A stretch of 64,000 nucleotides of DNA, taken from Negaprion brevirostris (lineage: Eukaryota). Under the pieces are notes generated by a model. The model was given only the letters and a program-made list of their open reading frames with translations. It made no database searches and was not told where the DNA came from. Numbering within the stretch: position 1 is the first letter of the stretch; the number at the start of each line of letters is the position of its first letter. Positions 1,996-61,165 of the stretch are shown here, piece after piece. Both the position numbers and the translations under genes were made by a program. The stretch covers positions 39,390,046 through 39,454,045 of the forward strand of contig JARDVH010000128.1 of assembly GCA_030324005.1 (NCBI GenBank), in the 5' to 3' direction.

Positions 1996-2159
1996 TATTG
2001 ATTTCATTTTCCGTCAGATTTCCTGATGTTAGAATTGTTGGTTGGGAGGTTCACGTTGGATTATGGTAGAAAATTTAACAGACCTTTCTCTTTCTTTCTC
2101 ATTCACTACGTTAATGCCATTTTTGTTCCATATTATCCACCCATTAATGCCCAAATCAG

Positions 2160-2430
2160 CAGCAACAACAACTTGTGTTTGTATCAACCTTAACTAGGAA
2201 AACATCTGAACTGTACAGGAGTCTTATAAAACAAAATTTGACACCGAGCAACATATGAAGATGTTAGGTCAGATGACCAAAAACTTGAGATAGATTTTAA
2301 GTAGTGTTTTAAATGAGCAAAGGTAGCAGCAGAGGGATAGGGAAAATTCTAGAACTTGGGCCTTGGCAACAGAAAGCATAACTGTTAAAATTGGGGATGC
2401 AAGAGGCCTAAGTTGGAGAAATGCAGACAT
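2160..2430 (-). mobile_element. L2 LINE 3' fragment (related pieces near 3545-3600, 10505-10855, 11260-11345 and 58190-58395 +)
   Basis: (caa)n tail and recurrent aaacaaaatttgacaccgag..ggtcagatgaccaaaa motif. Confidence 0.65.
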
Positions 2431-2437
2431 CTCAATG

Positions 2438-2715
2438 TTGTGGCACAATGGTTAACGCTGCTGCTTCATAGCGCTAGGGACCTGGGTTCGATTCCTGGCT
2501 TGGATCATTGTCTGTGTGGAGTTTGTACATTATTCCCGTGTCCGCATGAGTTTCCTCCAGGCACAACCGTTTCCTCCTGGTCTAAAAGAAGGGCTGATGG
2601 GGTACATTGACCTGAACTGGTGCTGGAATGTGATGACTAAGGGGATGTCATGGTAACTATGTTGCAGTGTTAATGTAAGACTTACTTGTGACCTAATAAA
2701 TAAACTTTGACTTTT
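2438..2715 (+). mobile_element. V-SINE, tail type B
   Basis: A box tggcacaatgg, B box ggttcgattcc, V-domain, tail gtaacttcattgcagtgttaatgtaag..aataaataaacttt. Confidence 0.88.
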
Positions 2716-3009
2716 GACTGGAAGGGATCACAGGCAATCCTTGACTTTACAACTTTCAAGTCACAAAGAATGACATTTAAGATGTTGACAAATTGATACA
2801 CTGTTTTGACTTTACAACATTAGTTTCTACTTTATGATGCTTGCTGTGACGTGATTCCATGCTGGCAAGCAAGTTCAAACATTCATACATGTGCATCAAT
2901 GTTCTGCGCTGCCCAACTCCCTGACTCAGTGTACACTACAGTACTATATTCCTATGTGTATTTTTAGCTTATGTGATTTTGTTTTATATATCAATATAAT
3001 TGCTATATT

Positions 3010-3325
3010 GTTTTGTTCATTCATGGGATGTAGGTGGCATGGTTGATTCAGCATTCATTACCCATTGATAATGGCTTTGAACTGAGTGGCATTTCAGAGA
3101 GTATTTAAGGGTCAACCACATTGCTATGGATCTGGCCAGACCAGGTAAGGTTGGCAGATTTCCTTCTTTAAATAGTATTAGTGAACAAGGTGACTTTTTA
3201 TGACCCTCAATAATAGTTTCCTAGTCATCATTAGATTCATTGCAAATTTTTACTGAATTCAAATGGTAGGATTCAAATCTGGGTCTCTGGATTACTTGTT
3301 CAGCAACACCACAAGGCCACCCACC
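3010..3325 (-). mobile_element. tRNA-derived SINE with CR1-like tail (same family as 8850-9190)
   Basis: Diverged reverse complement of the 8850-9190 and 21720-22030 copies. Confidence 0.65.
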
Positions 3326-3654
3326 GCCTGTCCTAATATTGCTATATTATTCCTCTATAATTGATTGAGTACAAAATTTTGGGTTGTTTTGGTGAAAATA
3401 GAGTATTGAGCCTTGGTTCAGGCTTCAATCCCCCATTTATAACATTGTTCTTATGGGAAAATAATTTCTGAAGTGTGACATTTCATCTTAAGGCACAGTT
3501 TTCAGAAACCAATTGCATTCAAAGACTAAGGACTGACTGTACAGAGATAATGAGAAAGCAAGACCATGGAGGAATTTGAAAACAAGGATGAGAATTTTAA
3601 AACTTGCAGCTTTCTAACAAAAAAAGAAAAGACAAATGCTGTTAAAACTTGATT

Positions 3655-4400
3655 AATTCAAGATAGCTGAAGAAAGGGACATGCTGAGCACGATTTTTGT
3701 CTTGCAGTCTAAGACAAGAATGCAAGGCAAATTTCAAAGGCAGCAACAATTTAACGTGCATGGGAACTTTGAGTTAATTGGCAAGTTGACTCTGTTTAGT
3801 CAAGGTAGTGCCATGGAGAATGTTCCAGGGAACTATTGTCTCTATGCTTTTGTTTAGTTTGAAATCAGTGCAATACCTGGACATGTTACTTTTGTCTGCA
3901 AAAGACAGGTCCCTCAGTATTGATATAACTTTCTAGCAAACATTAAGTAAGTCACATTATGAGCCCATCTGATAATTATAAATTCTTTTTAGGAAGCTAA
4001 AAAACTAAACCGTTATTGACGCTCAGGATTATTTCGCAAATGCTGTCTAATCGCAGAATCACACCTAACATTAGGCATTATGTTGTGAGGTTTGCAAACA
4101 TGTGCCAGTTGATTATGGTCAGTAAACTGCCTATTGCCAACAGCCAAAGGTTAAGAGTAGAAGGAACATGTCCAAGCACTGCACGTTCTCTGAATTAAAC
4201 AAAAACATGGGGGAAAATAGTTACTTAATACATTCTTCATGGCAATACCTTGATCAATCGGAATTGATTTGCCAACAAATCAGCATCTTTTCTCATGCTG
4301 TACAAATTGTTGCTCCCTTTGAAATTTAGCATTCATACATCTGTCCTGATGAGTGCAAGATGAAAAGCTTTGACAGCATCTTTTTTCAGCAATATTCAAG
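3655..4400 (-). mobile_element. 5'-truncated Penelope-like element (GIY-YIG endonuclease C-terminus) with inverted pseudo-LTRs
   Basis: Minus-strand DSAIRQHLRNNPE..FIII..YINTEGPVFCRQK at about 3890-4080; roughly 250-bp diverged inverted arms at 3655-3900 and 4155-4400. Confidence 0.8.
4341..4376 (+). ncRNA. Minimal type I hammerhead ribozyme motif (PLE-associated)
   Basis: Stem I CUGUC/GACAG; CUGAUGA; G-ugcaaga-U; GAAA; palindromic AAGCUU; NUH = UUU. Confidence 0.75.
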
Positions 4401-4739
4401 TTCTATACTACCAACTGACAATTTAAAGGTAACTCACAAAATAACTCTCCTGTCCATGAATCCACAAAGTTCTACTATACTAAACTTTAGTTAAGAATGG
4501 CTTGAATACTGTGGCATTTTGAGCAGTCCCACAATTATGTCAGACATTTTTTGATAGTTTCACAAATCTGACAGAAATGTGGAAAATTCAGTATAGTTGA
4601 TTGCAGCGTGTAAGTTTCTCTGAAATACAGGCTGAGGAACAGGGAGGTGTAAAACTGAGGCACACAGCCTATGTGATGGGGTTTAAATGGGCAGTTTAAT
4701 AATAAATGCGAGTGTAAGAATTTTGATTATGGGGCAGTC

Positions 4740-5022
4740 AGAATCATAGACTCCGTACAGTGCAGAAGGAGGCCATNNNNNNNNNNNNCCAGGCCCTATC
4801 CCCATAACCCCACGTATTTACCTGCAAATCCCCCTGACACTGGAGCAATTTAGCATAGCTAATCAACCTACCCTAATCTTTGGAGTATGGGAGGAAACTG
4901 AACTACCCGGAGAAAGCCCACGCAGACACAGGGAGAATGAAAAAACTCCATACAGAGAGTGACCTGAGGTCAGAACTGAACTTGTCGTTGATGCTGTGAG
5001 GCAGCAGTGCTAACCACTGTTG
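4740..5022 (-). mobile_element. V-SINE HE1-like, tail type A (CR1 tail)
   Basis: gaatcataga..gcagaaggaggccat tail, reverse V-domain and head. Confidence 0.9.
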
Positions 5023-5247
5023 TTTGCTAGGCCAGAGGAGGCAAGAATGCACATTTAGGGGAGGAATGTTGTCAGCAAATTTTAAATAAGTGTTCATAGG
5101 ACAGGGAAGAACAGTGCCTGAGGAGAGAGAATCTTTTACAAAAAGTACACATACCAGAAAGGGCAGTTATGTGGGGAAGCAATTTAGTAAGGATGATGGA
5201 GTTAACTGAATAAGGTGCTTAAGGTATATCTCTTGAAAAAAACTAAA

Positions 5248-5615
5248 GGCACAACGGGTGGCACAGTGGTTAGCACTGCTGCCTTACAGCACTAAAGACC
5301 TGGGTTTGATTCCTGGCTTGGATCACTGTCTGTGTGGAGTTTGCACATTCTCCCCATATCTGTGTGGGTTTCCTCCAGCTGCTCTGGTTTCCTCCAAAAG
5401 ACGTCTGGCTAAGTTAAAAGTTTATTTATTATTCACAAGTGGGCTTACACTAACACTGCATTAAAGTTAGTGAAAAACCCCTAGTCGCTACAGTTAGGTG
5501 CACTGGCCAAGCTAAATTGTCCCTCGATGCACCCAAACAAGTGCTGGAGTGTGGCAACTACGGGATTTTCACAGTAACTTAATTGCCATGTTAATTTAAA
5601 CCTTCTTGTGACACT
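5248..5615 (+). mobile_element. V-SINE, tail type B, with an antisense tail-B piece inserted at about 5411-5491
   Basis: Head, V-domain and tail recognised; the internal segment is the reverse complement of the tail. Confidence 0.85.
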
Positions 5616-5624
5616 TATTTTTCC

Positions 5625-6210
5625 AAGATGGTGCCAGAGCAAGGTGACTCTTGTAAGCTGTGGCCAGCATACCCTCTAATTCTATCTTTTACTCTTGTTC
5701 TACGCTTCTACGCCTTGGCTGTGACTGGAACACTACATTCTACACCCTCTCCTTTCATAGAATCATAGAATCCCTAGTGTAGAAGGAGGCCAATTGGCCC
5801 ATTGAGCCTACAATCCCACCCAGACCCTATCCACTTAACCCCATGTATTTACCCTGCTCGTTCCCCTGACACAAAGAGGCAATTTAGCATGGCCACTCCA
5901 CCTAACCCGCACATCTTTGGACTTTCCTTCTCTATGTATGATACACTTTGCCTGATGTGGAGATGCGTGCGTTGGACTAGGGTAAGCACAGTAAGAAGTC
6001 TCACAACCCCAGATTAAAGTCCAACAGGTTTATTTGGCACCAGCTTTCAGATAAGGTAATGAAGGAGCCCGAAAGCTAGCGCCAAATAAACCTACTGGAC
6101 TTTACCCTGGTGTGTGAGACTTCTTGCGACACTTTGTCTGTACAGTGCACAAGAAACAATACTTTTCACTGTATTGTAACTACACATGTGGCAATAATAA
6201 ATCAAATATA
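5625..6210 (+). mobile_element. Internally deleted Rex1/Babar-type element carrying nested SINE (5756-5922 -) and PLE palindrome (5955-6128)
   Basis: caagatggtgcc 5' end; 3' UTR cactacattct..cttttcactgt..caataataaatcaaat shared with the Rex1 copy at 55728-56123. Confidence 0.7.
5955..6128. mobile_element. Fold-back Penelope-like terminus (family 1)
   Basis: Arms aagaagtctcaca..tttatttggc..gctttc / gaaagc..gccaaataaacc..tgtgagacttctt; flanking 12-bp near-duplication acactttg(c/t)ctg. Confidence 0.8.
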
Positions 6211-6546
6211 AATAAACTTTAAAACTTTTTAGGCATCCCTGGCAACAATAGACAAAATAACAACAATTTGGAATGGCACAACTGATAGAGAGACCTAAAC
6301 CCTGAAAGGAAGAAAGATTACAAAAATTAAATAATAGTCCCTCTTTGACTTATGTGATGCCTGGACTTTAACCTTGCTGAAAAAGTGCTGGAGAACGTTC
6401 CTGCTGACTGACTCCAGAGGCTGTGTGACAGGAACCACGTGGTGTTCGCCGGAAGTGGTTGCAGCCGGGCGAGGGTTAAAGGGCAAAGGTTGAAGGTGGC
6501 GGTGCTGTTTCCTGTGTTGTGGTGGGGGGAATTTGTCTGGGCAGCA

Positions 6547-61165
<54,619 letters not shown>

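Follow-up and report, generated by a model that had tools for sequence, protein, structure and literature searches.

A type I hammerhead motif in a decayed Penelope-like element upstream of shark PARN, and a likely pseudoknot in the fold of its family

We analyzed a 64,000-nucleotide stretch of the Negaprion brevirostris genome (contig JARDVH010000128.1), referred to here as the window, which carries a hammerhead motif at positions 4341-4376 of the plus strand. In our reading, to which we assign a probability of about 0.8, the motif belongs to the decayed end of a Penelope-like element; the one-pair helix II of its family is likely completed by a 7-bp pseudoknot, and the window copy is likely inactive because two of the pseudoknot pairs have been lost.

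Results

The hammerhead motif and its parts

We re-read the letters and coordinates of 4341-4376, and these agree with the preliminary description, as do the five-pair stem I, both catalytic boxes and the AAGCUU palindrome reported there. On the plus strand, the 5' strand of stem I (4341-4345) makes five pairs with its 3' strand (4372-4376). It is followed by the catalytic box CUGAUGA (C3 to A9, 4346-4352), by a one-pair helix II (10.1-11.1, 4353-4361, formed by G4353 and U4361) that closes a loop II of 7 nt (4354-4360), and by the GAAA box (4362-4365), both boxes and the 3' strand of stem I having been read directly from the letters. Next come the palindromic helix III (4365-4370), with a self-duplex energy of -4.3 kcal/mol, and position 17, which is U4371, so that the cut is predicted to fall 3' of 4371. 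The features of a type I hammerhead are all present, namely CUGANGA and GAAA boxes, A15.1-U16.1, H17, helices I to III and ends that lie in stem I. A non-circular permutation of the kind treated in part of PMC10085705 was considered and dropped, since the order of the blocks is that of a plain type I hammerhead. The preliminary description had looked to conservation and covariation across copies as a check, and both were found: the CUGAUGA box is conserved in the family, and all five columns of stem I show two-sided changes in the cross-family comparison (5/5). The single pair that it had assigned to helix II proved to be the family's own design, G-C in the ancestral form and G-U in the window copy, although in the window copy helix II could make two pairs (4353-4361 and 4354-4360).

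A motif this short might resemble a hammerhead by chance. Taken alone, the boxes say little against this, since their pattern has six matches in the window where 2.2 are expected. The hammerhead model search proposed in the preliminary description also gave no match: no Rfam hammerhead family was found in window positions 2000-8000, nor in six loci with good copies, at E values up to 10. Moreover, the predicted minimum-energy fold of the window motif is not a hammerhead (z 0.44). Set against these points, none of 200 simulated windows contained the complete motif, in which exact boxes are combined with a palindromic helix III and a five-pair stem I. Across families the motif keeps its place behind the open reading frame (ORF), with covariation in stem I and in the loop pairing described below. 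The 25-letter core has 495 exact matches in the genome, and its reversed control has none. We regard chance resemblance as refuted because of the covariation across families, and its remaining likelihood as negligible; judged from sequence, the motif is a real type I hammerhead.

The host element is an old Penelope-like retrotransposon

The motif sits in the 5'-truncated 3' end of a Penelope-like retrotransposon on the plus strand (4161 to about 4420), which we delimited by its identity to the family majority sequence (87.8% over 255 bases, with majority support fading at 4415-4423). The copy opens inside the ORF, of which it keeps 10 final codons (4161-4190) and the stop codon (4191-4193), and these are followed by the 3' UTR or pseudo-LTR, the hammerhead and a tail at 4395-4414 on the plus strand. 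The tail is optional, being present in 36 of 66 scored copies from the same genome and absent from the other 30; the plus-strand copy has it and its neighbor does not. This neighbor is an inverted, 5'-truncated twin on the minus strand (3657-4150), placed head to head with the plus-strand copy and retaining part of the GIY-YIG region. The twin is 75.9% identical to the family majority, and with both boxes altered its hammerhead core is destroyed. Such a head-to-head arrangement recurred in 26 of 99 other loci, and same-strand pairs of copies over the hammerhead in 3 of the 99. The element is a dispersed repeat, 78-84% identity being measured for the 40 relatives scored out of 3294 candidates.

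Walking upstream through longer copies, we found in the family majority translation an ORF in the order YVDD, thumb and C-terminal endonuclease. A profile built from the copy alignment retrieved 371 proteins, the best of which carry RVT_1 (PF00078), PF26215 and GIY-YIG (PF01541), and the motif DKG is present in the homologues. Translations of single decayed copies matched no Pfam family (0/2 and 0/7), and a homologue search with one decayed copy found none among longer proteins. Homology could be followed for about 1.1 kb on the 5' side of the stop codon; no full-length copy occurred among the fetched loci, and no relatives were found in viral contigs. A reverse transcriptase (RT), a C-terminal GIY-YIG endonuclease (EN), 5' truncation, inverted neighbors and an optional tail are all traits of Penelope-like elements in the relevant sections of PMC8557442. 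From its sequence, the carrier is an old Penelope-like retrotransposon with a C-terminal GIY-YIG domain, and the earlier placement of the hammerhead in a Penelope pseudo-LTR is borne out by the RT, thumb and GIY-YIG order of the ORF and by the position of the motif in the 3' end of the element.

The same sections of PMC8557442 give the Neptune clade a CX2-5CXXC zinc-finger linker between RT and EN. This linker is absent from the family majority translation and from all nine homologues checked (9/9), and we rejected membership in Neptune on that ground. The absence of the linker is the sole pointer to the Penelope/Poseidon clade.

As a separate observation, contigs assembled from four runs were more than 100 times deeper over window positions 4320-4400 than over the ORF end at 4156-4278. 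The excess of depth over the hammerhead suggests either that this part is common to many subfamilies or that most copies are very short stubs. A search of RNA sequencing runs listed none that contains the element, a result with no bearing on its expression.

Predicted pairing of loop II with the 5' flank in four families

Copies of the family have, just 5' of stem I, seven bases (4333-4339, plus strand) that are the complement of the 7-nt loop II (4354-4360); the two stretches are the predicted 5' and 3' strands of a pseudoknot. A genome pattern open to loops of 5-9 nt gave 13 matches, each with a loop II of 7 nt, and 276 genome copies carry both strands exactly, with a linker to stem I that varies in length and letters. 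Six or seven pairs are kept in 62 of 87 fetched copies, from loci found by their likeness to the window family, and two of these 87 own-genome copies are intact in every part.

For an outside test, we fetched 80 metagenome loci of related elements. A relaxed scan of these loci returned 36 rows, of which seven were chance-like and were dropped. The remaining 29 rows are G-N7-C hammerheads of three further families, known from metagenome loci alone; 18 have all seven pairs, 6 have six and 4 have five, and in the last one the flank is cut off. These three families have the G-N7-C form in common, and the same helix III palindrome is found in related families. A genome search for a second own-genome G-N7-C family with another palindrome gave 0 matches. 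Two side observations concern these relatives and one a possible addition to them. One related family (L132, L134, L137, L144 and others) has mostly U at position 3, keeps G8 and has U17. A weak match to the histone 3' stem-loop model (L130:1319-1365, 27.7 bits with a cut-off of 34) lies right behind the hammerhead of the family to which L130 belongs. The metagenome row whose flank is cut off may represent a fourth further family.

Compensatory changes were evaluated in 13 rows from four families, where four of the seven pairs change on both sides and two positions show three pair types. The covariation score was reached by none of 500 shuffles, bearing in mind that only four families are independent and that relatedness alone can beat shuffles. 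Controls with a slid partner strand pair at 28-40%; the percentage of pairing in the 13 rows themselves is inflated because they were hand-picked as good copies, and one of them is misaligned on its 3' side. A match as good as the real one was found at 0-0.35% of background places per family, and one non-cognate combination of flank and loop also reached 7/7, through wobbles. The complementarity ends at the edges of the loop, extending onto 11.1 in none of five representatives and onto 10.1 in two of the five. In the five intact representatives the seven-pair duplex has an energy of -7.9 to -9.6 kcal/mol. Among seven representatives, a helix IV enclosing the 5' strand amounts to 0-2 pairs, and the distance from the 5' strand to C3, stem I included, is 6-10 bases in every case (7/7). 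Because four families keep the pairing, with compensatory changes at four of the seven pairs, the family fold is likely that of a PK-type (pseudoknot) hammerhead combined with a dimer-type palindromic helix III. The word 'minimal' in the preliminary description does not suit a hammerhead whose loop II shows a 7-bp pairing with 4333-4339 that covaries in four families.

The same pairing could instead serve as an off-switch, in which a hairpin forms first during transcription and locks the core until a partner or a protein opens it. Transcription would complete both strands ahead of helix III and of the 3' strand of stem I, the hairpin made by this helix on its own has an energy of -6.2 to -7.4 kcal/mol, and the minimum-energy nested fold holds this helix without stem I in four of five intact representatives, as computed by a program that does not allow pseudoknots. 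We nevertheless consider an off-switch unlikely. The pairing is limited to the seven loop bases and leaves G10.1-C11.1 and both boxes free; loop length is fixed at 7, and without the pairing helix II is a single pair. Microbial one-pair hammerheads, moreover, need a pseudoknot of this kind to cut, according to the portions of PMC11300833 and PMC3088659 that deal with them.

The window copy has lost two pairs of the predicted pseudoknot

A completing pseudoknot remains the preferred reading of the family fold, and it directs attention to the state of the pairing in the window. There the pseudoknot is broken at 4335 and 4337, leaving five of seven pairs and a duplex energy of +0.7 kcal/mol. Other aligned copies have the pairing letter in 27 of 30 cases at 4335 and in 25 of 30 at 4337, and the contigs of the family from four runs have it at both positions in about nine of ten by depth. 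The motif had been called intact, which is true of its boxes and stem I and not of the pseudoknot. The CpG-type C>T changes proposed at 4361 and 4371 were substantiated by the presence of TG and CA where some copies keep CG. At the first site (11.1/12) own-genome copies have TG 50 times, CA 13 times and CG 13 times (n=87), and at the second (17/1.1) TG 18 times, CG 16 times and CA 11 times (n=54), with the CG counts at both sites raised by loci that were picked for CG. It had been suggested that these two changes may weaken the ribozyme through a G-U pair and a UUU cleavage triplet. The G-U pair did arise by CpG decay, but the UUU triplet is usual in one related family, and U17 is common in published examples. 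The pseudoknot breaks at 4335 and 4337 likely matter more than the UUU triplet.

Contigs from three other organisms (X2, X3 and X4) cross the twin junction or enter unique flank, placing the same insertion there. One X3 contig, 54 bases long, matches the window letter for letter over 4305-4358, and since it includes the pseudoknot breaks, these appear old. No same-strand partner copy exists in the window, only the destroyed inverted twin. By this structural model the window copy is likely inactive; with perfect boxes and a perfect stem I, it may conceivably retain some slow cutting in trans.

We also weighed whether the window locus holds a plain minimal hammerhead that has no tertiary brace and still cuts slowly as a dimer. 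Its boxes, palindrome and stem I are perfect, the U17 that it carries is no oddity among published examples or in the related family, and two helix II pairs are possible. Against this stand the covariation of the upstream pairing in four families, the unfavorable energy of the hammerhead fold of the window copy relative to another fold (+1.2 to -1.9 versus -7.8 kcal/mol), the lack of a same-strand partner in the window, and the 3-7 pairs that helix II has in published minimal hammerheads (PMC4209133, in the parts covering the motif). We judge this explanation to be quite improbable.

The element lies between PARN and BFAR

PARN lies downstream on the plus strand, where we located its CAF1 exon at 44244-44360 and an exon-2-like motif near 13970. 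A start codon and splice donor at 6547-6565 on the plus strand, outside the element, mark what we take to be the probable first coding exon of PARN, and a CpG-rich stretch (6401-6800) lies just before the PARN start. From 4376 to this probable start codon, whose ATG is at 6547, there are 2171 bases, in agreement with the distance of about 2.2 kb given in the preliminary description. The first coding exon of BFAR is on the minus strand at 39382629-39382907 of the contig (L205:2530-2808), about 7.1 kb left of the window. It is 96% identical to the white shark protein, and a splice-acceptor-like sequence precedes it. Because this minus-strand first coding exon lies left of the window with an acceptor-like sequence before it, the element is probably in intron 1 of BFAR, by gene order and splice signals, which would leave the surviving hammerhead antisense to the gene; we did not find exon 1. 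BFAR and PARN are divergent, one on either side of the element, and likely share a promoter. We found no literature on a shared PARN/BFAR promoter.

This location invites the explanation that the host kept the copy to regulate PARN or BFAR. The hammerhead is 2.2 kb from the likely shared promoter region, and the insertion is at the same place in the three other organisms. However, it is one among the 495 exact copies of the core, it precedes the PARN start and runs opposite to BFAR, its pseudoknot breaks appear old, being contained in the X3 contig identical over 4305-4358, and the twin, which reads in the BFAR sense, has a destroyed core. Host use therefore strikes us as very improbable. The closeness of the hammerhead to PARN appears incidental, because the motif is upstream of the PARN start and probably antisense to BFAR.

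Other hammerhead-like sequences occur in the window. One at 12731-12766 on the minus strand, in intron 1 of PARN and antisense to it, belongs to another repeat family and is a minimal hammerhead of conventional form; its boxes are intact, and it has a four-pair stem I, a five-pair helix II and the palindrome AGCU. Decayed hammerhead-like stubs of other families were seen by eye at 1325-1355 and 6050-6085 on the plus strand and were not recovered by our hammerhead scan.

Discussion

Our preferred reading is that of a family hammerhead completed by a pseudoknot, of which the window holds a decayed copy. In an active ancestor, G10.1-C11.1 would carry the stacked 7-bp pseudoknot helix, which would stand in for helix II and run parallel to stem I with a short linker between them. 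Two copies would be needed to form the palindromic helix III, so the cut after position 17 would be made when tandem or paired copies meet, in line with proposals for other Penelope hammerheads. The window locus would then be an old, drifting insertion that has no partner on its own strand and is probably not transcribed in sense. Parts of this picture have published precedents. In the model for Penelope hammerheads, the palindromic helix III needs a second copy (PMC4209133, PMC6765202). In a tested hammerhead with a one-pair stem II, a shortened pseudoknot slowed cutting by 20- to more than 100-fold, and compensatory changes reversed the loss (PMC3088659). In the PK hammerhead structure, G10.1-C11.1 is likewise the closing pair and the pseudoknot comprises 6 bp (PMC11300833).

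The shark family shares much with the minimal hammerheads of Penelope-like elements in the sections of Cervera and De la Pena (2014, PMC4209133) describing them: the same type I in a 3' repeat behind the ORF, the same short palindromic helix III and G10.1-C11.1 pair, and the same occurrence as mostly single truncated copies, some of them close together in opposite orientation. It departs from the minimal hammerhead descriptor given there. The descriptor asks for 3-7 pairs in helix II, whereas the window copy and the four families have a single pair or at most two; no base stands between 9 and 10.1, so that G10.1 adjoins A9 in the four families; and from GAAA to U16.1 there are four bases, more than are allowed. 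The 56 aligned examples in the portion of the PMC4209133 supplement that lists them have helix II of at least three pairs and include no cartilaginous fish. Penelope hammerheads are said in the pertinent text of PMC6155905 to be without tertiary contacts, whereas the shark family has a 7-bp pairing with the 5' flank.

In its fold the family resembles a known class. The PK hammerhead, a fast-cutting form, was reportedly described by Weinberg et al. in 2015, and minimal hammerheads in Penelope-like elements are said to be treated by Lunse et al. (2017). In the structure of Zhan et al. (2024, PMC11300833, PDB 8YDC), as far as its published excerpt describes it, a loop closed by G10.1-C11.1 likewise pairs 5' of helix I, and the pseudoknot helix takes the place of helix II, as it would in the shark family. 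The family has the G10.1-C11.1 closure and the full pairing, whereas the window copy has a G-U closing pair and five of seven pairs. The pairs are seven and canonical in the shark family, compared with six, four of them standard, in the PK hammerhead, which also has a five-pair helix IV and an A-rich triplex linker that the shark family is without. In addition, helix III is here a mere palindrome that needs a second copy, and the carrier is an animal retrotransposon. Perreault et al. (2011, PMC3088659) reported a similar pseudoknot, in which the regions of stem I and stem II are joined by Watson-Crick pairs. In the portion consulted, hammerheads stabilized in this way occur in all three types; the tested example with a one-pair stem II is of type II and from a metagenome, and that portion does not assign such a pseudoknot to Penelope-like elements. 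Non-LTR retrozymes (PMC7229834; bioRxiv 10.64898/2026.07.22.740005) have the same type I hammerhead in Penelope-derived repeats, but in the passages defining them they are tandem non-coding units, whereas the window holds an inverted pair of ORF-bearing stubs. The available part of the 2026 preprint samples one cartilaginous fish and does not mention a pseudoknot (bioRxiv 10.64898/2026.07.22.740005). We found no published account of the pairing in Penelope elements in a search that did not extend to the 2017 and 2015 papers by Lunse et al. and Weinberg et al., either of which could show it.

The family fold, joining a PK-type brace to a dimer-type helix III, is likely a new variant. We hold it to be somewhat more probable than the contrary that a whole branch of the Penelope-like elements of animals has a hybrid hammerhead not described before, in which a stripped PK fold (one-pair helix II, 7-bp pseudoknot and no helix IV) is combined with a dimer-only helix III. 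Such a hybrid would cut only with both its pseudoknot and a partner copy, would be missed by the published descriptor and by Rfam, and, among natural forms, would be the smallest to link minimal, PK and pistol-like folds. The copy near PARN most likely does nothing and is likely unrelated to PARN. Penelope hammerheads have been described as slow in vitro. In an anole Poseidon element, hammerhead cleavage was not needed for insertion in vitro, according to the section of PMC11167929 on this point. If the brace is real, it would offer a direct test of whether Penelope hammerheads are built for efficient dimer cutting, and current descriptors would be missing a class with hundreds to thousands of copies per genome.
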